Source: an uncultured Bacteroidales bacterium
GTDB taxonomy: Bacteria; Pseudomonadota; Alphaproteobacteria; Rs-D84; CACZYB01
Direction of reading: 5' to 3'
DNA: 38,961 bases
NCBI GenBank assembly: GCA_964530355.1
Contig: CAZHAL010000001.1
Span: forward strand, 1-38,961
In this document: one piece after another, positions 5,456 through 38,808 of the stretch
Layout: each line of letters begins with the position of its first letter
Numbering within the stretch: the stretch's first letter is position 1
Notes under the pieces: model-generated
Database searches by the model: none
Told to the model about the DNA's origin: nothing
Seen by the model: only the letters and a program-made list of their open reading frames with translations
Position numbers and translations under genes: made by a program

Positions 5456-6250
5456 CTACTTATCCTTTTTCTCAACAACTTTTTCTGTCTTAGTCAAATT
5501 TGCAATCGCATTATCCAAATTCGTTTTAAGTGCGGATATATAAGTATCCATTCCGTATCTGATAAGAAGAGAATCACAAATAACCTCTATCCCGCACAAA
5601 ATAGATAAATCAATTTTAAATTCAACATTACTAATCTTTTTACCGATAAGTTGAGAAAGTGCCGTTTTAATTTTCGCTTCCTCTTTACTCCCGATTTTAA
5701 AAGATGTCGCAACAACAATATGCTTGGATTTATTATAAAATTCATTGATAAGTTCGGATTTTTCAATTTTCCCCTTTGAAATCTTATCAATAAAATTTTC
5801 TAAAATAACCGTTTGAACATCTTCATTCGCCAAATCTTTAAGTGCAGCCGAAACAGTATTCACAATGACATCCCCTGCGATATCGGAAATCGACATACGA
5901 AGAGCTTCCCGCTCCTCTACCAACTGTTTATCAAAAGCCGACTTTTTCGCATTTATTTCGGAATTAAGATATTTCATCAAAAGAGCCTGTTCCTTTTCCG
6001 ACTTCTTATGTGCCTCTGCAATAACATCACTTTTTGCATTTTCCACCTCGGCTATTTTTTTAAGAAGCTGTTTTTTCTCTTTCTCAGCCTCAATCCTGGC
6101 TTCCTCCGCCTCTTTAAGTCGCGATTGTATAGCCTTTTCACGCTTATCCATAGAAGACAGCACCGGAGCAAAAAGATATTTTTTAAGTATCCATACAATA
6201 ACTAAAAAGTTTATAGTCTGAAAAAATACAGTACTCCAATTTATATTCAT
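5456..6250 (-). CDS. atpF: ATP synthase b subunit fused to a delta/OSCP-like C-terminal domain
   Basis: N-terminal TM plus long charged coiled coil typical of subunit b. The C-terminal ~100 aa (VVATSFKIGSKEEAKIKTALSQLIGKK...IDLSILCGIEVICDSLLIRYGMDTYISALKTNL) resemble the delta-subunit C-terminus (D-x-SLIGG...GD-x-x-D-x-S pattern). No separate atpH is present in the operon. Confidence 0.75.
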   Translation of the reverse strand: MNINWSTVFFQTINFLVIVWILKKYLFAPVLSSMDKREKAIQSRLKEAEEARIEAEKEKKQLLKKIAEVENAKSDVIAEAHKKSEKEQALLMKYLNSEINAKKSAFDKQLVEEREALRMSISDIAGDVIVNTVSAALKDLANEDVQTVILENFIDKISKGKIEKSELINEFYNKSKHIVVATSFKIGSKEEAKIKTALSQLIGKKISNVEFKIDLSILCGIEVICDSLLIRYGMDTYISALKTNLDNAIANLTKTEKVVEKKDK

Positions 6251-6281: not shown

Positions 6282-6563
6282 TTATTTTGCAAGTTGTTCG
6301 ACACCATAGTTCCAAAACGGATTACTGAATATCAAAATCATTGAAACCAAAAGTGCATAAATCGCTGTTGATTCAAGCATAGCAAGAGCAACAAACAAAG
6401 TGCTTCTGATACTGCTTGCTTCATCCGGTTGTTGTGCCATAGAAGCCAAAGCCTGTCTAACGGAATTACCTTCCGCAAGTGAAGGACCCAAACCTCCTAT
6501 ACCAACCGCAAACGATGCTCCTAACACAGATGCAACTGCAATCCAAACTAATCCCATATCCAT
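6282..6563 (-). CDS. atpE: ATP synthase c subunit with a Na+-type ion-binding signature
   Basis: 93-aa two-helix hairpin. Loop QQPDEASSIR (compare RQPE). Helix 2 is LAMLESTAIYALLV, giving E64-S65-T66-x-x-Y69. Confidence 0.9.
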   Translation of the reverse strand: MDMGLVWIAVASVLGASFAVGIGGLGPSLAEGNSVRQALASMAQQPDEASSIRSTLFVALAMLESTAIYALLVSMILIFSNPFWNYGVEQLAK

Positions 6564-12292: not shown

Positions 12293-14407
12293 ATGGCAAT
12301 ATTTAAAAAACAAAAGGCAGGCGCAACTCAAACTTCATCACCATCAGATGAAAACGAACAAATGTTGCCTGCCAATAAAAAAAGTAAATCTGAAATTACA
12401 ACAAAACAAACAAATACAATATTGCTTATCATCGCATTCGTTATGCTTGGTATTTTTGTTGTCGGCGCAATATTTACAACAAATAAAAATCAAGCAGATA
12501 TACAGGCGATGGAAAACTCCATACCCGAAGAAACAACTACTACAACAACAACCGTTACAACAGAAACTTTTACATATATTTCACCTGTTGTAAGCTCTGA
12601 TCCGCAAACCGTAAAATTTGATAATATACTTGTCGGAACGGAAAGCTTTAACTCTATCATGATTTCCGTTGCAAACAGTCCGATAAAAATAACTGACATA
12701 AAATTCTCAACACAAGTTGACGGTCTTTCCTATGATGACGATTGCACACAAAGGGAATCTATCACACCGGAATCAAATTGCATAATAAACCTTATTTGGA
12801 CACCGACAAAAGTTGAAAACAAAAATATCTTTATGCTTCTTACCTATAATGATCCGGACAGCGAAGACATAACCACATCAGCACAAAGCGAACGTGGAAA
12901 ATCAAGAACGTATAAAATAAACATCTCTCTTTCCTCAATGGAAAACAAAACATCTGTTGAAACATATGATGAGGAAGAAGAGGACGAATTTTACGATGAT
13001 GACGAAGATGAAGAATACGAAGAAGAGGAGGAGGAAGAGGAAGATTTCCAACCTGCGACAAGACGTGACGTTCGAAATTTCACAAACACTGTTGCACCAG
13101 TAATGAATCAAGCACAGGAAACAACAAAAACAATATACCCTTCCGATTGCAAAAAATATGCAAGCAAGGCTTACGACTTTTCGGGAACATTCATAGGTTG
13201 GGTTCAAACAAATAACGATGTCTTTGCACCAAATTGTTCAAAGGTCATAGGTTCTCTTCAGGAGGACGGCATGGTCCTTGAAATAGGGACCGGAAAACTT
13301 ATCGGAAAGGGTGCCGTTTTTGATAAAAAGAAATCAGAGGAAAAAAGAATTGAACTTACTCTTCCGCTTTTAGAGGAGGTAATGGAAACCGTAACATCCG
13401 AAAACTTTAATCCCAGTATAGAGGATATATCCGCAAACCGTAGTGCAGTTAAAACAGAAGGATACGGCGGTAAAGATGCATCAAATTACAGTAACGAAGA
13501 TTTATACAAGGCCGACGATCCACTAAAAATAATCAGCCGACAGAAAAATTCCCTTATTCCGTTTACTATCACAGAGCCTACCCAACTGTCATCTATGCCA
13601 AAGGATGAACGTTATGTCCTTCGCCAATCAAAACCGATACCTGCGGTCCTTAACCGACCTATATATTTCGGAAGTGCGCGTGAAAATTCTCGTGCCGGCG
13701 AAGACGGGACTATATATTCGGCACATGAAGGAAACGCAGTTGCCACTGTCGAAAGGAATGTTTACGGCGGTGACGGTCGAACAATAATAATCCCTGCCGG
13801 ATCTCAACTGATTGGAACTGCTGATGAACCTGCCGGTACCGGATTACAGGAAACCGAAAAAATAAATATAACCTGGACAAGACTTATTCGTCCGGACGGC
13901 GCAGAATTCAACCTTGACGGTCTTACCGCATTTACTGGCGATGCCCAAGGTCGAGAAGGCGTCCCCGGAAAAAACGATACGGAATATATGCGTGATTTAT
14001 TCATAAAACCGCTTCTTTATTCTGCTCTTCCTGTTGCAATGGAAGCAATATTCCCATCAACATCATCCCTTGTTACCCGTGTCAAAAGGACTGACGGAAC
14101 ATATCAAACTATCGATGATGCAATAACAGAGGAGGAAGGAGATTACGGCTTTGATTGGAATGAATCAACCTATGATCTTAATATGTCATCAAAGGATAAA
14201 ATGAAAGCCGAAATCCAACAAAATTGGAAAACCGGTATGCAAAAACTTATTGACCAATCTGCAAACCAATCAATACCGTTTACAGTTGCAGCCGGAACCC
14301 GCATTATGGTATTTTTAAACAAAGATATTATGCTTCGTATCGAAGACGATATGACAGAAGCATTAAGCAATGCTTCTACTGAAGCAGAGGGCGGTGCCGG
14401 AGAATAA
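12293..14407 (+). CDS. virB10: Type IV secretion protein VirB10/TrbI-like with N-terminal insertions
   Basis: One TM (ILLIIAFVMLGIFVVGAIF). The C-terminal TrbI/VirB10 domain reads VERNVYGGDGRTIIIPAGSQLIGTADEP...INITWTRLIRPDGAEFNLDG...GDAQGREGVPGKNDTEY.... Confidence 0.8.
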   Translation: MAIFKKQKAGATQTSSPSDENEQMLPANKKSKSEITTKQTNTILLIIAFVMLGIFVVGAIFTTNKNQADIQAMENSIPEETTTTTTTVTTETFTYISPVVSSDPQTVKFDNILVGTESFNSIMISVANSPIKITDIKFSTQVDGLSYDDDCTQRESITPESNCIINLIWTPTKVENKNIFMLLTYNDPDSEDITTSAQSERGKSRTYKINISLSSMENKTSVETYDEEEEDEFYDDDEDEEYEEEEEEEEDFQPATRRDVRNFTNTVAPVMNQAQETTKTIYPSDCKKYASKAYDFSGTFIGWVQTNNDVFAPNCSKVIGSLQEDGMVLEIGTGKLIGKGAVFDKKKSEEKRIELTLPLLEEVMETVTSENFNPSIEDISANRSAVKTEGYGGKDASNYSNEDLYKADDPLKIISRQKNSLIPFTITEPTQLSSMPKDERYVLRQSKPIPAVLNRPIYFGSARENSRAGEDGTIYSAHEGNAVATVERNVYGGDGRTIIIPAGSQLIGTADEPAGTGLQETEKINITWTRLIRPDGAEFNLDGLTAFTGDAQGREGVPGKNDTEYMRDLFIKPLLYSALPVAMEAIFPSTSSLVTRVKRTDGTYQTIDDAITEEEGDYGFDWNESTYDLNMSSKDKMKAEIQQNWKTGMQKLIDQSANQSIPFTVAAGTRIMVFLNKDIMLRIEDDMTEALSNASTEAEGGAGE

Positions 14408-14421
14408 AAGGAAAAACATAA

Positions 14422-14784
14422 ATGAAAAAATTCTTAACATTAACTTTAACGATTTTTACATTACTTTCAACAAACGCAAACGCAACAACTTTTATGTCCG
14501 CGTTTGAGGAAATCCCTCTTCAAAACGGACTTAGCGAAGAAGAACCTTTTTCCTATGATACAGAGGAAATAAGGATAATTGAACAATATGTTTCAAGTGC
14601 CGATATGAGCATTGATGAATTTTTAAAATTTTACCGAACAACACTAAAATCATTGGGCTGGAATGAAATTTCCCATAATGATAAAAATACCGTTTTCAAA
14701 CGCGAAGATGAATCATTAACACTTACAATAGAATCAAGTTCTCCGCTTGTTGTTTTATTTTCACTTAAACCTTACGGTAAATAA
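14422..14784 (+). CDS. Small secreted protein of unknown function, last gene of the virB8-B10 operon
   Basis: Signal peptide MKKFLTLTLTIFTLLSTNANA and RBS AAAGGAAAAA. I recognised no family. Confidence 0.5.
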   Translation: MKKFLTLTLTIFTLLSTNANATTFMSAFEEIPLQNGLSEEEPFSYDTEEIRIIEQYVSSADMSIDEFLKFYRTTLKSLGWNEISHNDKNTVFKREDESLTLTIESSSPLVVLFSLKPYGK

Positions 14785-18769: not shown

Positions 18770-18820
18770 ACATTTTACTTTTAAAAAAAATATATTATAA
18801 TGTTTTCAAAGGAGAAGATT

Positions 18821-19609
18821 TTGCTTAAAAAGTTACTGACATGTCTGTTTATTCTAACAAGCTCCATCACCTATGCACAGGAAATAATGGAAATGGATTC
18901 ATACGAAGATGATGTCGAATTCATTGGTGAGGATGGAGAGGAAGAAGAATACGAAGATTATGTCGAAGAGGGACAAGAAGAATACGTTGTATCAAACTTA
19001 AACGAACGGGTAAAGGGTTTCGATATCGCCGGCGTAATGTTGGAAATGAACTATAAAAAGGTGCGTGAGGTATTAAAGGAACGCAAATACAAATTCATTG
19101 ATGTTGAATACAAAATTCCCGAATACTTTACTTTTAATTACGATTCTATCTGTCGTTCACATAACGTCTTCATCCCTGAAAATTTAAAGGCTTGTATCAC
19201 AGGTCTTGCAAAAAAGGATAAGATGCAATATGTCTATAAGGCATCATTTAAAAAACACGATACTAACGAAGATATCAATGTTTATTTCACAGGTCCTTTG
19301 ACCGATAACAAAGTTTATAAAATAGAATACACAAATGACGTAAATAAAAAATACGGTGATGCAAAAAATTTCCAATATCAAAGGGAGGAACGTCGCCGTG
19401 CATTTTGGTATTTCGTTCTTTCAAAATACGGCGAACCGAACGTAGAACCTAATCAATGGGTTTTGGATATGGAGGAAGAATTGCAAACAAGCCTTACCGC
19501 ACAATATGGTAAACTTACACTTGAAAACAAAAAACAATTCGCATTTGATGTATTGGAAACAAACAAAGAAGCTCGTCGCCAATTCAAATATACCAACTAT
19601 ACATTCTAA
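18821..19609 (+). CDS. Secreted hypothetical protein with an acidic N-terminal tract
   Basis: I prefer the TTG start at 18821 (AAGGAG 6 nt upstream), giving signal peptide MLKKLLTCLFILTSSITYAQE. The track ATG at 18800 is an alternative. An acidic run DDVEFIGEDGEEEEYEDYVEEGQEEY follows. Confidence 0.5.
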   Translation: MLKKLLTCLFILTSSITYAQEIMEMDSYEDDVEFIGEDGEEEEYEDYVEEGQEEYVVSNLNERVKGFDIAGVMLEMNYKKVREVLKERKYKFIDVEYKIPEYFTFNYDSICRSHNVFIPENLKACITGLAKKDKMQYVYKASFKKHDTNEDINVYFTGPLTDNKVYKIEYTNDVNKKYGDAKNFQYQREERRRAFWYFVLSKYGEPNVEPNQWVLDMEEELQTSLTAQYGKLTLENKKQFAFDVLETNKEARRQFKYTNYTF

Positions 19610-19665: not shown

Positions 19666-20073
19666 CTAATCCCAACCTCGGGTATCTTGCAATCCTTTAT
19701 ATGTATCTTGTATATCATTTCCACGATTTGGATCTGCCAAATATGAAACGATAAATCCTGCAACACCAAGAAGAACAAGTGCAACAATAAGATAAAGTAA
19801 TTTTTTCCAATCAATAGAACCGTCTTGGATAGCAGTCCATGCATAAGCCAAGAAAGCGAATGCAGCACAAACGAACAAAGCATTTCTTGTCCATGCAAAT
19901 AAATTACTTCCGCGTTGTAAGAATTTTTGGAACGGACCGGTCAAACCTTCTGTAACAATTCTTTCACCATCTTGCTGCGCAAAAACATCAGCAGGAACAA
20001 CAAACATAAACGCACATAAAATAGCAAGACAAACAAGTGTTGATTTCTTTGTTAAAAAATTAAATAATGACAT
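19666..20073 (-). CDS. VirB2/TrbC-like T4SS pilin candidate
   Basis: 135 aa. It has a long signal peptide ending VFAQ/Q, then two hydrophobic helices (ALFVCAAFAFLAYAWTAI and YLIVALVLLGVAGFIVSYL) separated by a short polar loop. This is the VirB2/TrbC propilin architecture. RBS GGAGAAAAAG. Confidence 0.5.
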   Translation of the reverse strand: MSLFNFLTKKSTLVCLAILCAFMFVVPADVFAQQDGERIVTEGLTGPFQKFLQRGSNLFAWTRNALFVCAAFAFLAYAWTAIQDGSIDWKKLLYLIVALVLLGVAGFIVSYLADPNRGNDIQDTYKGLQDTRGWD

Positions 20074-20149
20074 CTTTTTCTCCTATAAATTAAATTACAA
20101 AAATATTATAGCAAAATTTCCGTATTAACGCAAGTTTTTTTTATTCACC

Positions 20150-20755
20150 TCATCTCTTCTTAATATTGGCATAATGAGGTTTTATATAAAGCGGTTCAAT
20201 CGGCTCCTGCACAAAAGTTTGCCTGTCAAATTTCTCCTCAACCGCCGATAACACAGCAACCGGAGAAATCTCTCCGCCTATAACATTTTGACCGACATAA
20301 AAATTACTTATCACCGGCACATCCGACAAAACAGCATCCTTTAAAACAATACTATACTCACCTACCTTACATCCGTCAGCATCAAGCCTTCCGTAATAAC
20401 AATCCTTTCCTGCCGCATCCAGATATATATTGTAATCCGACAATCCGGCATTTTTATATGTATAATACATTGCCTCAAAGTTAGAAAGACAAATCACCCT
20501 AACCCCTGTTGCAATCAAAAAACCCTTTATAACGGAAAGCCCTAACCGTATCCCAGTAAAAGAACCGGGACCGACTATCGCAACAACAAAATCCAAATCC
20601 GAAATTTTAACCCCGCCCAACACAGAAGAAATCGCATCAAAAATTTCCTCTGATTGGCTTTTCTCACCACTTGATAAAAAATTATGAACGCTATCCCCAT
20701 CCTTAAAACAAATCTGTAAAAAATTAAGCGCAGTATTGATATAAAGACTTTTCAT
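20150..20755 (-). CDS. tsaB: tRNA t6A37 threonylcarbamoyl-transfer protein TsaB (YeaZ)
   Basis: VAIVGPGSFTGIRLGLSVIKGF is the TsaB/YeaZ signature. The 201-aa size fits. Confidence 0.8.
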   Translation of the reverse strand: MKSLYINTALNFLQICFKDGDSVHNFLSSGEKSQSEEIFDAISSVLGGVKISDLDFVVAIVGPGSFTGIRLGLSVIKGFLIATGVRVICLSNFEAMYYTYKNAGLSDYNIYLDAAGKDCYYGRLDADGCKVGEYSIVLKDAVLSDVPVISNFYVGQNVIGGEISPVAVLSAVEEKFDRQTFVQEPIEPLYIKPHYANIKKR

Positions 20756-20825
20756 ATTTTTAAATTGACCTCAGTATTTTTTCTTATATAATAACAAAAA
20801 GAGACTTAAAAGACAAGAGGGAAAA

Positions 20826-21785
20826 ATGCTTTCAAAATTCTTAAAAACTACTACTCCAAAGGAAACATACAAACTTCCCGTTGTAACAAAGGAACTTGCC
20901 TCTTTTGCCACAACAATATTTGAATTTTCAACCGACGCAATGTTAATACTTGATTCGGTCGGCAAAATAGCCTCTGTCAACACCGCACTTTGCAACCTTA
21001 TTTCTGATGAAAAGGAAAACATAGTCGGACAAATTCCGGAATTCCTTTTCGGCGGACAAAGTGACATTTTATCATTCAAAAATTTCATCCGGGATTTAGT
21101 TTTAAACGGCTATTGGAACGGTCAGGTTTTAGCAAGGAGCAAATCCGGAGCCGTAGTCCCGATGGAAATCCGCTTTTCCGCAATCTATAATGATATAGGT
21201 GAGGCAAACCACTTTATCGGTATCTGCTCTTCCATCTATTCTTATATATCAAAGATGAACGAGCTTCCATTCGACCCTAACCTTGACCCGCTTACAAAAA
21301 CATATAACTACAATTCGTTCTTGCACCGCCTTGAACATAATATACATAAGATTGAAAAGGATATGTCAGTCCTTTCCGTATTGTATATTGATATTGACGG
21401 TTTTAAAAACCTTGATAACACACATAATTATTTAACCGGAGACACTGTCCTTAAAAACCTGGGCGCCCTTCTTACCGAAACACTTGAAAAAAGTGATACC
21501 GTAGCAAGATTAAAGGCGGACATTTTCTGCATAATACTTCTTGATATTTATACCCAGGAAAGCATTCAAAAAATGGCGGAAAACATTTTCAAAAAGATTA
21601 CCGCACCTTATGCGCTGCACCCTGATATAGAACATATATCTATCAGTATGGGTGTTGCGACTTATCCTATAAGCGGGGAAAATCCGCAAAGCTTAATCGC
21701 CTCCGCCGCAGAAGCAACCAAGAATGCAAAAAATGCAGGTGGTAATCAAATCAAATATCATAAAAGTTTAAATGAGATAGATTAG
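20826..21785 (+). CDS. PAS-GGDEF protein with a degenerate active site (KADIF instead of GGDEF)
   Basis: PAS-like N-half (FEFSTDAMLILDSVGKIASVN...GYWNGQVLARSKSGAVVPMEIRF). GGDEF fold: DPLTKTYNYNSF...VLYIDIDGFKNLDNTHNYLTGDTVLK...ARLKADIFCIILL...SISMGVATYP...AKNAGGNQ. Confidence 0.75.
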   Translation: MLSKFLKTTTPKETYKLPVVTKELASFATTIFEFSTDAMLILDSVGKIASVNTALCNLISDEKENIVGQIPEFLFGGQSDILSFKNFIRDLVLNGYWNGQVLARSKSGAVVPMEIRFSAIYNDIGEANHFIGICSSIYSYISKMNELPFDPNLDPLTKTYNYNSFLHRLEHNIHKIEKDMSVLSVLYIDIDGFKNLDNTHNYLTGDTVLKNLGALLTETLEKSDTVARLKADIFCIILLDIYTQESIQKMAENIFKKITAPYALHPDIEHISISMGVATYPISGENPQSLIASAAEATKNAKNAGGNQIKYHKSLNEID

Positions 21786-21805
21786 CTAAGAGCTGTTCAA
21801 ACCCA

Positions 21806-21831
21806 AACTCCCTGTTAAGGGAGTTTTTTTT
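21806..21831 (+). terminator. Rho-independent terminator of the GGDEF gene
   Basis: Stem AACTCCC / GGGAGTT with loop TGTTAA, followed by T8. Confidence 0.7.
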
Positions 21832-21937
21832 AGTCGCAATTTTTCAAGACCGATAGGCTCTCTGGAAAAATTTTTATGAAGGGAAATTTATATAAAGTAA
21901 ATACATCCACCAGAAAGGTTATTACGAAGTAATGACC

Positions 21938-21967
21938 GGCAACCCCCAGGGGGGCTCGGGGGTCGCC
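21938..21967 (-). repeat. GC hairpin with C-rich loop (minus-strand reading GGCGACCCCC-GAGCCCCCCU-GGGGGUUGCC)
   Basis: 10-bp stem. It is perfect (with one G.U) on the minus strand and has an A.C mismatch on the plus strand. Confidence 0.6.
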
Positions 21968-22073
21968 TTATAACAAGGAGGAGAGTATAAGGAATTTGAA
22001 GAGGAGGAAAAACATAAATGAAAACAATCAAACGCAATACATCTTCCAGTAGTAAGTTTTTTATAAAACTTAC

Positions 22074-22111
22074 GTCGCCCTCCCTTACCCCCCCCCTTGC
22101 GGGAGGGCGAC
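22074..22111 (+). repeat. GC hairpin with C-rich loop (GUCGCCCUCCC-UUACCCCCCCCCUUGC-GGGAGGGCGAC)
   Basis: Perfect 11-bp stem and a 16-nt loop containing C9, read directly. Confidence 0.6.
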
Positions 22112-22195
22112 ATTGACGAGGATAAAGATAAACAGATTGTTGAAGTTGTTTTTCATAAGTTTCCATATCCCTCAACCATATCCGGGTTGATAGCC

Positions 22196-22266
22196 CCAGT
22201 CTGCTCGGCACCCCCTCCGCCCCCTTTAGGGGGTGCCGGAAAACCACTTCGTGATTTTCGGACTGG
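22196..22266 (+). repeat. Nested hairpin element CCAGUC...CGGCACCCCC-UCCGCCCCCUUUA-GGGGGUGCCG...GACUGG
   Basis: A 6-bp outer helix encloses a perfect 10-bp GC stem with a C-rich 13-nt loop, plus a second small hairpin. It is collinear with the element at 37790-37845 on the opposite strand. Confidence 0.6.
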
Positions 22267-22354
22267 CAGATATGGTTAAGTAATTTTCTCCCAGAAAACC
22301 GAGCGAATGTCCGCACCCGCGGGCGGGCACAAAATAAAATAATTCATTATAAAA

Positions 22355-22388
22355 AACTCCCCAACAAAAAGGGGAGTTTACGCATCGA
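22355..22388 (-). terminator. Rho-independent terminator of glycine-rich protein gene 1
   Basis: Minus strand reads AACUCCCC-UUUUUGUU-GGGGAGUU followed by U6. The design is nearly identical to the terminator at 37935-37964. Confidence 0.7.
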
Positions 22389-22401
22389 TTCGGATTTATA
22401 A

Positions 22402-23151
22402 TCAGTTACAATCATAAAACTTATATATTTTAATCCAACCATCACCACCGGCACTTCTCGCAGAATTAGAATCACAGTCGGACCTTTTACCTCCTATACC
22501 TTTTGAACCACCTAAACCATTTCCCGCAGGAGCTTTATTTGCCGGATAATAGGAACAACCTCCCTTTTCTCCTCCGTCACCACCTGCAACATAAAGGTTA
22601 TAAGAACCTACCGTAATTTCTGAATGACCACCATTGCCACCATTTTCTCTTGCTCCTCCTCTAGAACCTCCCTTTCCTATTTTATAAGTAAGCTGTATGG
22701 CATCCGCAAAATGTAATATCTTTGAATATTGCAAATCACCTGCACCGCCATCTCCGCCGGGACCGGAACAACATCCTTTCAATCCGCGACCTTCTCCATG
22801 AGAACCGGCGCCACCACCTCCTGCACTGGCAACTTCAAATTGATAAATACCGGGATCTAAATTCCTAAAGCTAGTACTCTTAGCCCCCCAATCCCAAACA
22901 GGAACATTTGAATTGTAACTGTCATTCATTTCTGCAACAACCATTTTTCTACACCTTGACGGATCAAAAGGAGTCCCTGTATTCGCCGGACATACCTTCC
23001 CCTCCGGACATGTCGCACAAGACGTCAACGTCCCGTCACTATACGTTCCTAATCTACACGATAAACATTGATAAACCGCACTTCTGCCTACCAATGCCCC
23101 GGCAACTGACATCACCATCGCCCCTATTACTAACTTTTTCTTTTTTCCCAT
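22402..23151 (-). CDS. Secreted Cys-rich / glycine-rich domain protein (paralog 1)
   Basis: I prefer the start at the second ATG (23151), preceded by GGAGGA. Signal or anchor segment KKKKLVIGAMVMSVAGALVG. Cys module YQCLSCRLGTYSDGTLTSCATCPEGKVCP. Then PGIYQFEVASAGGGGAG and repeated GGxGG tracts (GPGGDGGAG, GGNGG, AGGDGGEKGG). Confidence 0.7.
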   Translation of the reverse strand: MGKKKKLVIGAMVMSVAGALVGRSAVYQCLSCRLGTYSDGTLTSCATCPEGKVCPANTGTPFDPSRCRKMVVAEMNDSYNSNVPVWDWGAKSTSFRNLDPGIYQFEVASAGGGGAGSHGEGRGLKGCCSGPGGDGGAGDLQYSKILHFADAIQLTYKIGKGGSRGGARENGGNGGHSEITVGSYNLYVAGGDGGEKGGCSYYPANKAPAGNGLGGSKGIGGKRSDCDSNSARSAGGDGWIKIYKFYDCN

Positions 23152-23251
23152 TTTTTCCTCCATTTCTTTTCTTGGGTTAATTATTTTTAATTTCGGGAGG
23201 GAGGAAGCAGAAGACTATGAACCAAAAAAACAACTTCCTCCCGCAAATTAA

Positions 23252-23545
23252 CTAATTTCTATACAGCCCCCTATACATACCGGGACTGCAATTATTAGTA
23301 TTATTGTTTAAACTTATATAAGTCCCTGCCGGACACTTTAATGCTAAACACTCACGGTCTACATACATTTTACCTGACGGACAACTACACGAAGCCCCAT
23401 CCCTATAAGTAGCCTTAGTATCGCACCTGCCGTTCTTCGGCACACAATACTTTATAAGCATTTTATCATACGCGCTTACCCCCGCCTTTGCAGACAGACT
23501 TAACCCTCCGACAAATATGCCAAAGATTATATATTTCTTTTTCAT
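23252..23545 (-). CDS. Small secreted Cys-rich protein (97 aa), upstream of glycine-rich paralog 1
   Basis: Start placed at ATG 23545 (RBS AAGAGGGAG), giving signal peptide MKKKYIIFGIFVGGLSLSAKA. The mature part is CVPKNGRCDTKATYRDGASCSCPSGKMYVDRECLALKCPAGTYISLNNNTNNCSPGMY, with 8 Cys. The longer track ORF start (23635) lies in the structured leader. Confidence 0.6.
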   Translation of the reverse strand: MKKKYIIFGIFVGGLSLSAKAGVSAYDKMLIKYCVPKNGRCDTKATYRDGASCSCPSGKMYVDRECLALKCPAGTYISLNNNTNNCSPGMYRGLYRN

Positions 23546-23611
23546 ATCATACTCCCTCTTTTTACCAGTTGATAAAATCAAATGGTGTGTTACAATAAAT
23601 CCTCTGCACAC

Positions 23612-23792
23612 GCGGGGAGTTGACAAATCACACATTATAAGATGACTCTACATAACCTTTAAGAACCGTCTGTTCTCTGAACATACGTTATGAGCTCCCC
23701 ACATACACAAAGATGTGGAGCACATAAAGTTCTTAAAGTATGCCTTTTTTAAAACAAACTTTATAATGTGTTAGGACTTGTCACAGTCCCGC
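23612..23792. ncRNA. 180-nt rod-like inverted-repeat element: candidate ncRNA (6S-like shape), structured 5' leader, or MITE-like element
   Basis: ~30-nt arms pair (23612-23640 with 23761-23792). A 10/18-nt internal bubble follows, then a 14-bp inner stem (23651-23666 with 23729-23742) and two apical hairpins. Promoter-like hexamers exist on both strands, so the transcribed strand is unresolved. Confidence 0.35.
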
Positions 23793-23865
23793 ATCCTACG
23801 AGGACGCCATAAATTTGGAAAGACTCCAAATTTATTTTCATAATACTATATTAAAAGATAATACG

Positions 23866-23894
23866 CAACAAAAAAGATGTTACAAAGTAACACC
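23866..23894 (-). terminator. Rho-independent terminator of fabZ
   Basis: Minus strand reads GGUGUUAC-UUU-GUAACAUC followed by U6. The G.U pair closes only on the minus strand. Confidence 0.65.
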
Positions 23895-23929
23895 TTTTCC
23901 CTATTCTAAAACAAAATTTTATTTAAAAA

Positions 23930-24385
23930 TTACAGTTTAGTTTTACCTGATTTCATAGCTGACAGAACGGCTGACACACAAAGTTTATCATCAACATAAA
24001 CAGCAGCCTTCCACTTTTCAAATGCACCACGTTGAGCACACTTTTCAACCTTTATATGAAGTTGATCCCCAGGGATAACTTGATTTTTAAACTTTGCTTC
24101 ATCAATACCTGTTAAAAAGACAATCTGTCCTCTTAAATCTTCCGACTCGGAAGTTGCCCCAACCAACACCGCAGTTTGAGCCATAGCTTCCAACATTAAA
24201 ACCCCCGGCATAACAGGAGAAGCCGGAAAGTGTCCCTGAAAAAATTCTTCATTCGCACTAACATTTTTAATACCGGTTCCCGATTGTCCGGGCACTATAT
24301 CAATTACTCTGTCAACAAGCAAAAAAGGATACCTGTGTGGTAAAATTTTTTTAATGTCATCAATATATAATATATTTTTTTCCAT
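23930..24385 (-). CDS. fabZ: 3-hydroxyacyl-ACP dehydratase FabZ
   Basis: LPHRYPFLLVDRV...FFQGHFPASPVMPGVLMLEAMAQ is the canonical FabZ hot-dog motif. Confidence 0.9.
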   Translation of the reverse strand: MEKNILYIDDIKKILPHRYPFLLVDRVIDIVPGQSGTGIKNVSANEEFFQGHFPASPVMPGVLMLEAMAQTAVLVGATSESEDLRGQIVFLTGIDEAKFKNQVIPGDQLHIKVEKCAQRGAFEKWKAAVYVDDKLCVSAVLSAMKSGKTKL

Positions 24386-33922: not shown

Positions 33923-34507
33923 TTATCTCCAACAATCACGCTTTCTTGCGAAATATGCTTGAGGATGAGCACATGCAGGACATACATCAGGAGCCTTTTC
34001 CCCAATATGTAAATATCCGCAATTCAAACATTCCCAAATAATACGTTCTGATTTTTTAAACATAGAATCTTCTTGCAATTCCTTTAACATGGAAAGAAAT
34101 CTTTCTTCGTGATGTTTTTCGGCAACCGCAATCGCACCCATAGCTTTTGCAATTTCTTCAAAACCTTCTTCACGTGCAATCTTTGCAAAAGTAGGATACA
34201 TTTCTGTATATTCTTCCTTTTCACCATTTGCAGAAGCAACAAGATTTTCCGCCGTATCCCCAATTACACCACAAGGGAACTGAACATCAACATTAATTGC
34301 GGACATACCGCCTTCTAAAAATTTAAAAAGACGTTCCGCATGTTCCTTTTCTTGATTCGCAGTTTCTTCAAAAAGCTTTGAAATTTGAACATAACCTTCT
34401 TTTTTCGCTTGTGAAGCAAAGAAAGTATATCTGTTTCTTGCTTGCGATTCGCCTGCAAAAGCGGTAAGTATATTTTTTTCGGTTTGAGAACCTTTTAAAC
34501 TTGGCAT
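33923..34507 (-). CDS. rbr: Rubrerythrin
   Basis: Four-helix diiron domain (TEKNILTAFAGESQARNRYTFFASQAKKEGY...EKEHAERLFKFLEG...EKHHEERF) plus a C-terminal rubredoxin-like CLNCGY...CPACAHP. Confidence 0.9.
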   Translation of the reverse strand: MPSLKGSQTEKNILTAFAGESQARNRYTFFASQAKKEGYVQISKLFEETANQEKEHAERLFKFLEGGMSAINVDVQFPCGVIGDTAENLVASANGEKEEYTEMYPTFAKIAREEGFEEIAKAMGAIAVAEKHHEERFLSMLKELQEDSMFKKSERIIWECLNCGYLHIGEKAPDVCPACAHPQAYFARKRDCWR

Positions 34508-37514: not shown

Positions 37515-37550
37515 AAAAAGGACGGCAAACACCGTCCCTTAAATTTTTTT
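37513..37550. terminator. Bidirectional terminator between the secreted-protein pair and rpmJ
   Basis: Stem GGACGG (37520-37525) / CCGTCC (37532-37537), with A7 before and T7 a few nt after. Confidence 0.55.
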
Positions 37551-37561
37551 ACAGCAAGAAG

Positions 37562-37684
37562 TTATTGTTTTGCTTTAAATCTTGGATTCTTTTTATCAAT
37601 AGCATAAACACGTTTACCGCGACGAACTAATTGAACTGTACTACTTCTTTTTTTAGCTGATTTCAAAGAACTTAAAACTTTCAT
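37562..37684 (-). CDS. rpmJ: 50S ribosomal protein L36, non-zinc (YkgO-type) form
   Basis: [40 protein letters not shown] (40 aa) matches the Cys-less L36 paralog type. RBS GAGGT lies 6 nt upstream. The longer track ORF start is upstream of the promoter. Confidence 0.85.
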
Positions 37685-37789: not shown

Positions 37790-37845
37790 CAGTCTTTATG
37801 GCACACCCGCGGGGGCGGGGATCCGGGTGTGCCATGCTCTGACTG
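37790..37845 (-). repeat. Second copy of the nested GC hairpin element (minus strand CAGUC...AUGGCACACCCG-GAUCCCCGCCCCCG-CGGGUGUGCCAU...GACUG)
   Basis: A 12-bp stem with a C-rich 14-nt loop lies inside a 5-bp outer helix. It shares CAGUC / GGCAC / CCGCCCCC / GUGCC / GACUG in collinear order with 22196-22266. Confidence 0.6.
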
Positions 37846-37977: not shown

Positions 37978-38808
37978 CTAGTATTTAAATTTATAAAGCA
38001 CCGCACAACCGGTACTTGAACTAGTACATGCAAATTTCAATGATGTATTAGTCATATGAGTTGCTTTTCCGTCAGAACACGGATAACCTCCTACCAAAGT
38101 TCTAACAGATCCGGGATAAAGCTCCACACCGATAGCGTTACCGGCACAATTACCATTATGACCTCCGCAACCTCTATTATCACTATTGAAAGCCTGTCCC
38201 GCACAACCTACTCTATCACCGCAATTACCGGAAATTCCACCTTTATAACCTCCGACACTTCCACCATCTCCTCCTTTATCAGAAGATCCGGCATCACCAC
38301 CGCCTCCAGCACCTATTGCACCACCAAGACCTCCTTGACCAGATGTATTTTCGACTTTTCCACCGCCTCCGCCACCACCTACAACTAAATACATACTTCC
38401 AATGCTTAACCAAGATCCGGCACCACCTCCACCTTCTTTTTTTTCAGAGGATCCTCCATTACCTCCGGCACAAAGCATATAGCTAGTATCATTATATACA
38501 GTAAAAGAATAGGCCAAAAATCCGCCGACACCTCCTCCATAATCTTTACCGCTACCACCTTTGCCTCCGCGTAAGAATACAACATATTCTCCCGAAGGAA
38601 GGGCAGCCGCCTTACATTTTGAAGCCGAAGGGTTTGCTATAATATCATAATTACTTGATGATTCATAGCTATAGCACTGTCCGTTCAACCCCTTTGAATT
38701 TCTAGGACAAGCAACACATTGATAAAATGTTTCCGCCTTGGCCTCGGTTGTGGAAATGCCGGTAAGCAATCCCAATGCCGAGATAGAAAATAAAAATTTG
38801 TGGTTCAT
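37978..38808 (-). CDS. Secreted Cys-rich / glycine-rich domain protein (paralog 2)
   Basis: Signal peptide MNHKFLFSISALGLLTGISTTEAKA, an N-terminal Cys module FYQCVACPRNSKGLNGQC, then SGEYVVFLRGGKGGSG and many GGxGG tracts (VVGGGGGGGK, GGLGGAIGAGGGGDAG, GGDGGSVGG). RBS AAGGAGAAAAAA. Confidence 0.7.
   Translation of the reverse strand: MNHKFLFSISALGLLTGISTTEAKAETFYQCVACPRNSKGLNGQCYSYESSSNYDIIANPSASKCKAAALPSGEYVVFLRGGKGGSGKDYGGGVGGFLAYSFTVYNDTSYMLCAGGNGGSSEKKEGGGGAGSWLSIGSMYLVVGGGGGGGKVENTSGQGGLGGAIGAGGGGDAGSSDKGGDGGSVGGYKGGISGNCGDRVGCAGQAFNSDNRGCGGHNGNCAGNAIGVELYPGSVRTLVGGYPCSDGKATHMTNTSLKFACTSSSTGCAVLYKFKY

Follow-up and report, generated by a model that had tools for sequence, protein, structure and literature searches.

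A hypervariable hairpin cluster in an uncultured gut alphaproteobacterium points to a probable new, lineage-restricted family of palindromic DNA repeats

We analysed a 38,961-nucleotide stretch of DNA (hereafter the window) from a metagenome-assembled genome (MAG) deposited as an uncultured Bacteroidales bacterium and placed by GTDB within the Alphaproteobacteria (Rs-D84; CACZYB01); the window is the entire contig CAZHAL010000001.1 of NCBI assembly GCA_964530355.1, and all within-genome counts given below refer to its 39 kb. The spacer between two convergent genes at about 22 kb carries some 400 bases of closely packed hairpins (the island). Read from its sequence, the island consists of four or five copies of a repeat unit, clustered in a decayed, hypervariable spacer, rather than of a single gene. 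The units belong to one family, which recurs at a second window locus and, in variable number and arrangement, in sister genomes of one sub-clade, and the island also holds the relic of a gene. On balance we favour a new lineage-restricted family of hairpin-forming palindromic DNA repeats, similar to repetitive extragenic palindromic (REP) sequences and REPINs, or to miniature inverted-repeat transposable elements (MITEs). We favour it because the units share a family, occupy non-homologous loci in both orientations, turn over between strains, are confined to one sub-clade, lie outside obvious transcripts and coincide with breakpoints and assembly breaks.

Repeat units of the island

The spacer lies between a PAS-GGDEF gene (20826–21785, plus strand) and a gene for a glycine-rich (Gly-rich) protein (22402–23151, minus strand), which converge on it. 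A first-pass annotation, made from the letters alone, had placed a GC-rich island of stable hairpins here between two convergent terminators. Both terminators are present (plus strand 21805–26; minus strand 22379–54), and each hairpin was found at, or within 1–2 nt of, the position then given. The GC-richness depends on scale: four of the nine window segments with at least 73% GC over 30 nt fall inside 21931–22332, but 200-nt windows of the island reach 48.5% at most (window mean 36.4%), not above the coding DNA at 22700–22899. The features, including the translation-start relics considered later (SD, Shine-Dalgarno; ORF, open reading frame; HP-I and HP-II, the two hairpins of a module), are as follows.

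21805–21833, plus strand: intrinsic terminator of the PAS-GGDEF gene, a 9-bp stem followed by a T-run; left edge of the spacer.
21906–21967, minus strand: unit A, an inverted two-hairpin module, from alignment to the reverse complement of unit B.
21917–21937: HP-II of unit A, GGUUAUUAC GAA GUAAUGACC, read directly.
21938–21967: HP-I of unit A, stem GGCAACCCCC/GGGGGUCGCC with one A.C mismatch, read directly.
21966–21992, plus strand: small hairpin rich in AU, stem CCUUAUA/UAUAAGG, purine loop AAGGAGGAGAG, read directly.
22001–22116, plus strand: relic translation start with SD GAGGAGG, ATG at 22018 and a 32-codon ORF (MKTIKRNTSSSSKFFIKLT...), from the ORF list and a scan for SD and ATG.
22052–22073, no strand assigned: AU hairpin GUAAGUUUU-UUAU-AAAACUUAC, abutting hairpin E.
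22074–22111, plus strand: unit E (type 2), a solitary GC hairpin with a perfect stem of 11 bp and a C9 loop (loop UUACCCCCCCCCUUGC), from a scan for perfect-stem hairpins.
22085–22156, minus strand: apparent signal-peptide stub, ATG at 22156, 23 codons (MKNNFNNLFIFILVNVA...), then interrupted by hairpin E and a stop.
22196–22266, plus strand: unit B (type 1), a nested element with closing stem CCAGUC/GACUGG.
22206–22238, plus strand: HP-I of unit B, loop UCCGCCCCCUUUA.
22239–22259, plus strand: HP-II of unit B, CUUCG-type loop.
22309–22328, no strand assigned: hairpin D, GUCCGC/GCGGGC, with weak similarity to unit C (z 3.5) and to unit E (z 3.4–4.1).
22354–22379, minus strand: terminator-like site taken as the intrinsic terminator of the Gly-rich protein gene (22402–23151); right edge of the spacer.
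37790–37845, minus strand: unit C, a dispersed copy at an unrelated locus, from comparison of B with the reverse complement of C.

Units A and B are one module in opposite orientations: aligned locally to the reverse complement of B, A scores 39 where shuffles average 17.4 (z 6.0). Exact inverted blocks extend to 6–7 nt at most. This relationship explains the earlier remark that one of the C-rich loops is inverted relative to the others, since the HP-I loop of unit A, G-rich on the plus strand, is the C-rich GAGCCCCCCU on the minus strand; it also accounts for the minimum free energy structure, in which A pairs with B as one long fold-back. Folding of a 486-nt stretch gave −161.9 kcal/mol on the plus strand (z −5.7 against dinucleotide shuffles) and a z of −4.8 on the minus strand, with none of 100 shuffles as good in either case.

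The island had been described as unlike anything else in the window, which does not hold: a fifth GC-dense hairpin at 37796–37841 is a member of the same family and forms part of unit C. Units B and C lie 15.5 kb apart in opposite orientations (z 5.5 for B aligned to the reverse-complemented C). Both fit exactly a pattern with 23 specified bases (CAGTCTNNNNGGCACMCCC...GGGKGTGCC) that occurs nowhere else in the window and in no shuffle. Unit C is located between the terminator of ORF 37978–38808 (minus strand) and the promoter of rpmJ (37537–37660, minus strand), a near-consensus sigma-70 site (TTGACA-17-TATGAT) on the minus strand. As the island itself is enclosed by two terminators, the units at both window loci are outside obvious transcripts.

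The copies share a module of ~65–70 nt made of two hairpins. HP-I has a GC stem of 9–11 bp and a C-rich loop of 10–16 nt; HP-II follows directly, with an AU-richer stem and a CUUCG-type loop (C-GAA-G or GAAA when read from the opposite strand). In B, C and several relatives both hairpins are enclosed by a closing stem, CAGUC(AGCA)/(UGCU)GACUG. Hairpin D is probably a degenerate or partial unit, its membership being uncertain, and the hairpin at 21966–21992, for which no homologue was found, is spacer material.

The family in related genomes

Relatives were collected from five LpxD loci, and closer genomes were then fetched via the adjacent GGDEF protein. The five LpxD loci (79 kb), from MAGs of uncultured, mostly gut Alphaproteobacteria whose LpxD proteins are 90, 90, 87, 81 and 70% identical to that of the window, contain no blastn match to the island and no GC-dense 30-mer. 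The closer genomes do carry the family: in loci L099, L112 and L115 it sits downstream of the orthologous GGDEF gene, in the position and orientation of unit B.

The copies differ in number and kind between these loci. L099 (89% GGDEF protein identity) has two units, the second at the extreme end of its contig. In L112 (Mgla_MAG_18) two units lie 9 kb apart; unit a has the loop of B (UCCGCCCCCUUG) on a different stem, and unit b has a loop of the type of E (UUACCCCACCCCUUAC), the E-type loop lying at L112 20271–20304. L115 carries six or seven hairpins with a period of ~115–155 nt in a 940-nt spacer. Among these, 6476–6527 closely resembles window unit C (89% over 54 nt) and lies at a non-homologous locus, 5856–5888 bears the E loop on another stem, and a further copy is identical to H2 of L099. 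In L116 and L117, strains with the GGDEF protein of L115, the three units nearest the gene have been swapped for two different ones, and it is here that the closest relative of window unit A is found (L116 5860–5892, together with its CUUCG hairpin). The sister MAGs thus hold either single units or strain-variable arrays of 5–7 hairpins.

The arrays of L115 (5680–6660) and L116 (5740–6436) are built of tandem modules with a period of ~115–155 nt. Each module has a 22-nt repeat (CTTTGTTAATTAATAAATTCTT) before the GC hairpin and, on the minus strand, which is the strand of the gene, a strong SD and an ATG with a few codons reading into the hairpin. L116 also contains a 110-nt direct repeat, 89% identical and spaced by 238 nt.

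Outside this sub-clade we found no units: none in the clade of L005 and L100–L107 (80% GGDEF identity, ~94 kb sampled), and none in L003, L004 or L006. In 1.23 Mb of unrelated loci, none of 59 perfect 8-bp GC hairpins has a C5 or G5 run in its loop. A scan of a metagenome collection with the B/C pattern gave 27 matches, all from one unrelated locus of a human-gut organism of ~50% GC, and is silent on copy number because the collection does not contain the window organism; the corresponding scan of viral contigs gave one chance match, in coding DNA. Blastn against plasmid and phage collections gave no match, and a plasmid or phage origin was dropped.

The units coincide with discontinuities. 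Over 5.3 kb L111 matches the window at 91.4% identity; the match is lost immediately beyond the GGDEF terminator, and the L111 contig terminates in another hairpin, one whose loop is G9. L001, another contig of the same cluster, stops 27 nt into unit A, and assemblies are broken in or beside arrays in L001, L111, L099, L113, L116 and L117. The block trbC (virB2-like)-tsaB-GGDEF (window 19666–21785) is inverted with respect to the L005/L100 clade and oriented as in L099, L112 and L115, with hairpin units at one junction of the inversion. Similarly, rpmJ adjoins rseP in relatives and unit C in the window. Synteny junctions with units are seen at 21.8–22.3 kb and 37.8 kb of the window and at units a and b of Mgla_MAG_18.

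Relics of a secreted-protein gene

In each of L099, L112 and L115, a type-1 unit is found 65–85 nt upstream of the SD and ATG of a gene for a small Cys-rich secreted protein, on the strand opposite to GGDEF and intact in these loci. The proteins carry Ephrin_rec_like/TNFR-like repeats and have signal peptides such as MKINLNNKILLL..., MNKLKLSLIA... and MKLNNKILYL.... In the window, the ATG at 22156 is 42 nt from unit B, with strand and order as in the sister genomes, and the residues that follow resemble the sister signal peptides (L099 MKINLNNKILLLTSLG..., L115 MKLNNKILYLTAAG..., L112 MNKLKLSLIAIATF...). By this likeness, 22085–22156 is the signal-peptide stub of a lost Cys-rich secreted-protein gene, the remainder of which is gone.

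On the plus strand, the ribosome-binding context at 22001 is 84% identical to a real gene start at 14402–14433, and the 32-codon ORF from 22018 reads into hairpin E to a stop at 22114–6. The two relic starts face inwards, giving a mirror-like layout (A, start, E, start, B) with unit E at its centre. A real or decayed large protein gene was rejected for the island, as tblastx of 21786–23930 against all relatives gave nothing inside it; the only recognisable gene remnant there is a 17-residue signal-peptide stub. The public annotation places a 142-aa ORF over the whole island (21888–22316, minus strand). Among 5.8 billion proteins it has no homologue other than itself, and it is almost certainly spurious.

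The small secreted proteins form a fast-evolving set located after the GGDEF gene and fabZ: 22402–23635 (minus strand) in the window, 11004–11552 in L099, 11046–12135 and 19636–20785 in L112, and 5006–5695 in L115. Some are Cys-rich (Ephrin_rec_like/TNFR-like) and some Gly-rich (Gly_rich_2), and their gene content and length vary even among strains (216–248 aa in L115–L118), as in a contingency or host-interaction locus.

RNA-level and other alternatives

The first-pass annotation had offered three explanations of the island: a multi-hairpin RNA with anti-SD loops, a REP-like cluster of palindromes in alternating orientation, and a single structured RNA class of ~400 nt. The last fails, since the element as a whole has no homologue and is replaced by other sequence in the relative at 91% identity. 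The first fares better when applied to the single module. Each module could be a structured RNA with functional loops, acting either as a trans-acting small RNA (sRNA) whose C-rich loop is anti-SD, in the manner of the cuckoo/alpha-r14/CcsR RNAs, or, on the opposite strand, as a 5′-untranslated region (5′-UTR) element in which a G-rich, SD-like loop and a GAA/GAAA loop would control the translation or stability of the mRNAs for Cys-rich secreted proteins; the window copy would then be a relic left after loss of the target gene. We regard this as unlikely, although it deserves serious weight.

In its favour, stems differ by paired changes while loops are kept. The HP-I stem (P3) reads CGGCACCCCC, GCACCUGCCC, CGGUCACCCC or GUGGGCGCC(C), each perfectly partnered, and an A-T pair at the stem base of L115_H3 is swapped for G-C relative to L099_H1. 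These compensatory changes were read by eye, with no formal covariation statistic, the stems being of unequal length and not alignable by MAFFT. The hairpin set is moreover biased towards pairing, because part of it came from a hairpin search, so that perfect pairing is not independent evidence.

Cuckoo RNAs consist of 2–4 adjacent hairpins of 24–50 nt, all on a single strand, with highly variable stems and with loops of 9–27 nt that each bear the C-rich motif CCUCCUCCC; a genome has several of these RNAs, set among different neighbours and at times in tandem (PMC4615179). The present family likewise combines adjacent hairpins and fixed loop motifs with variable stems in several copies and contexts, and the B-type (alpha-type) loop CCUCCGCCC is one mismatch from the cuckoo motif. 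The exact motif is nonetheless absent from the window, and most loops are plain C-runs, for which pairing with a GGAGG Shine-Dalgarno sequence is impossible.

The constant setting of the units in L099, L112 (a and b) and L115, all oriented alike and 65–85 nt ahead of a Cys-rich gene start, also speaks for an RNA, as does a U-run after the closing stem in some units. Against this, both orientations occur within one cluster (A against B and E; H6 against H1–H5 in L115, H6 of L116 also being inverted), unit C is outside any obvious transcript, and some clades keep homologous Cys-rich genes without any units. Transcription signals are likewise lacking: neither strand is enriched in promoter-like or terminator-like sites, and the island between the two terminators has no promoter-like site where 1.9 are expected. 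The informative G.U and A.C positions disagree between hairpins of one unit, bearing out the strand conflict remarked on earlier, and Rfam assigns no family to the window or to the L115 array. The multi-hairpin anti-SD RNA thus keeps its conserved loops, its covarying stems and a loop near the cuckoo motif, but lacks the exact motif, a uniform orientation, a promoter and an Rfam match.

A related formulation, of which we are slightly more doubtful still, takes the two-hairpin module as a functional nucleic-acid element of a new class, belonging to uncultured gut Alphaproteobacteria, with an RNA or protein partner that would recognise its conserved loops (CCUCCGCCC-type or C-run, plus CUUCG / C-GAA-G). 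The module could act as an RNA regulator or 5′-UTR element of the fast-evolving genes for Cys-rich, ephrin-receptor-like secreted proteins, or as a structure-specific single-stranded DNA (ssDNA) recombination site that shuffles their 5′ cassettes. The recombination-site version would explain both the tandem modules of SD, ATG, few codons and hairpin, and the strain turnover.

We also considered a divergent transfer-messenger RNA (tmRNA, ssrA) or other housekeeping RNA gene, to which we give practically no credence. In E-value mode, Rfam returned a local match to RF00023 on the plus strand (21956–22144, E ~2e-4 in a 516-nt search), which aligns an A-rich 'tag' stretch, a hairpin with UAGUAA and a GC hairpin in the PK2 position. 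The match scores 15.7 bits against a gathering score of 47, covers model positions 50–312 only, and lacks the tRNA-like domain (acceptor stem with G3.U70, T-arm, CCA end). ARAGORN finds no tmRNA at default or relaxed thresholds, the last residues of the putative tag would be ...YIFQ, close relatives (the one at 91% identity among them) lack the region or have other sequence in its place, and the homologous L115 array gives no tmRNA match. The matching pieces are the ribosome-binding relic (the A-rich stretch), the AU hairpin and repeat unit E. The missing tRNA-like domain, the ARAGORN result, the lack of conservation and the L115 array together led us to discard tmRNA. At gathering score Rfam has no match in the whole window, in L002–L006 or in the L115 array; RNase P, signal recognition particle (SRP) RNA, 6S RNA and riboswitches are accordingly rejected. 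ARAGORN also finds no tRNA in the window.

Inversion of the segment between A and B was a further candidate, with A and B as the inverted repeats of a site-specific inverton that flips 228 nt (21968–22195) carrying two opposed SD and ATG starts. The repeats do flank a segment with one start signal per strand, and the locus is strain-variable and adjoins genes for surface or secreted proteins. Since the genes on either side converge on the element and each has a terminator of its own, there is no gene downstream for a flipped promoter or start to serve; in addition, the repeats are imperfect (the 6–7 nt blocks noted above), the window contains no recombinase gene, and no promoter-like site was found. 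We consider an inverton very improbable.

Four other candidates were dropped without a dedicated test: a type I toxin-antitoxin system, as none of the small ORFs makes a convincing hydrophobic toxin; integron attC sites, as GTTRRRY/RYYYAAC boxes are absent; phase variation at the C9 tract, which has no sensible downstream ORF; and CRISPR, as the units are not identical repeats.

The units as probable palindromic DNA repeats

Of the three explanations first offered, a cluster of palindromes in alternating orientation, like REPs or bacterial interspersed mosaic elements (BIMEs), fits best, given copies at two window loci whose number, order and orientation vary in the sister genomes. The size also agrees: REPs are imperfect palindromes of ~20–40 nt outside genes, and the hairpins here span 30–38 nt in intergenic spacers.

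If the units are DNA repeats of this kind, they would be non-autonomous, hairpin-forming elements that multiply, vanish and reshuffle via hairpin intermediates in ssDNA, driven by a trans-acting (Y1) transposase or by recombination or template switching between copies. From such spread it would follow that units accumulate at rearrangement junctions, which they may perhaps cause. The window units would be passive relics, serving at most as a structural barrier between two convergent transcription units.

Several observations weigh against this assignment. REP families run to tens or hundreds of highly similar copies in a genome; the copies in the window, at least three clear units at two loci, are only ~70–75% identical, compared with 94–98% for the REPs inside the REPINs of Pseudomonas fluorescens SBW25, and the A–B spacer measures 228 nt, compared with the 34–110 nt reported for REPINs. 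The arms of that spacer, tested outside units A and B, show no significant similarity (z 2.1), and inverted duplication of the whole island, which we had entertained, holds for the two units only. Conservation of the loops (CCUCCGCCC(CC)UU, UUACCCCCCCC(C)UUGC and CUUCG) rather than of the stems is unusual for REPs and suggests selection on the loop sequence. REPs are mobilised by a cognate RAYT, an IS200/IS605-like Y1 transposase encoded once in the genome; among the 40 window ORFs scanned there is no RAYT, Y1_Tnp or other transposase or recombinase domain. REPs of the RAYT group have a GTAG-type tetranucleotide next to the palindrome; the single GTAG of the island (22049–52) is not adjacent to A, B or D, and none flanks C. 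Finally, the sister units lie mostly in one orientation, 65–85 nt upstream of Cys-rich genes, as might be expected of a cis-regulatory rather than a selfish element.

If the interpretation as palindromic DNA repeats is correct, a REP/MITE-like family is added for a poorly known group of uncultured gut Alphaproteobacteria, the assembly breaks of these organisms at the island locus are accounted for, and a spurious 142-aa ORF in the public annotation is flagged. The units would also mark rearrangement junctions and a hypervariable locus of Cys-rich secreted proteins, plausibly host-interaction or contingency genes. Conserved loops on covarying stems could reveal the recognition logic of a hairpin-binding enzyme, or else a cuckoo-like regulatory RNA outside the Rhizobiales and Rhodobacterales.

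Other features of the window

The organism is present in the sequencing samples SRR9335148 and SRR33454270, and GCA_051885355.1 and GCA_014803545.1 are sister assemblies. The window carries an F-type ATPase operon, type IV secretion genes, lptF/G and tsaB, an rseP-bamA-ompH-lpxD-fabZ cluster, a rubrerythrin gene and rpmJ. Exact-protein look-ups of the Gly-rich gene and of ORF 37978–38808 returned no record. Acidic (Glu/Asp-rich) low-complexity repeats occur at 12957–13055 in a VirB10/TrbI-like ORF and at 18897–18986 in ORF 18800–19609. The rubrerythrin gene (33923–34507, minus strand) suggests that this alphaproteobacterium is an anaerobe or a microaerophile. Between the Gly-rich and Cys-rich ORFs, a 50-nt element (23193–23242) is 88% identical to L115 6580–6625; it folds as a hairpin, GGGAGGAAG/CUUCCUCCC, the 3′ arm of which is one mismatch from the cuckoo anti-SD motif.

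Comparison with known systems

The resemblance to tmRNA (RF00023) is one of order, an A-rich stretch, a stop-codon hairpin and a GC hairpin mimicking the tag-P5-PK2 part; the element differs in having no tRNA-like domain, in its sub-threshold score and in its lack of conservation. The cuckoo family of Alphaproteobacteria (alpha-r14, SmelC397, RSs0680/CcsR1-4, NfeR1) is similar in hairpin size, conserved C-rich loops and variable stems. In contrast to cuckoo RNAs, the family described here lacks the exact CCUCCUCCC, has mostly C-run loops, carries the C-rich loop in one of the two module hairpins, occurs on both strands and shows neither transcription signals nor an Rfam match.

MITEs and the Rickettsia palindromic elements are small palindromic repeats, non-coding in themselves, which spread in alphaproteobacterial genomes of high AT content; they can lie within coding regions or where these begin, and ORFs, whether real or spurious, read through them. 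They measure 100–150 nt compared with 35–70 nt for the units here, for which no terminal inverted repeats with target-site duplication can be defined. The GC clusters of yeast and other fungal mitochondria are short GC-rich palindromic hairpins in AT-rich intergenic DNA, strain-variable and associated with recombination and rearrangement; as they belong to another domain of life and have no sequence relation to the present units, the comparison is by analogy only.

A REPIN consists of an inverted REP doublet that folds back on itself, and the REPs inside the REPINs of P. fluorescens SBW25 are 94–98% alike (PMC3337134). The family described here departs from REPs and REPINs in its conserved loops and variable stems, its ~70–75% identity, its 228-nt doublet spacer, the missing GTAG flank, the absence of a RAYT from the window and the extra, AU-richer hairpin of the module with its conserved CUUCG / C-GAA-G loop. 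Its likeness to REPs, REPINs and BIMEs lies in short, GC-rich, imperfect extragenic palindromes, typically between convergent genes and clustered in alternating orientation, perhaps in an inverted doublet (A/B) that pairs in the predicted fold, and in its lineage specificity and differences between close strains.

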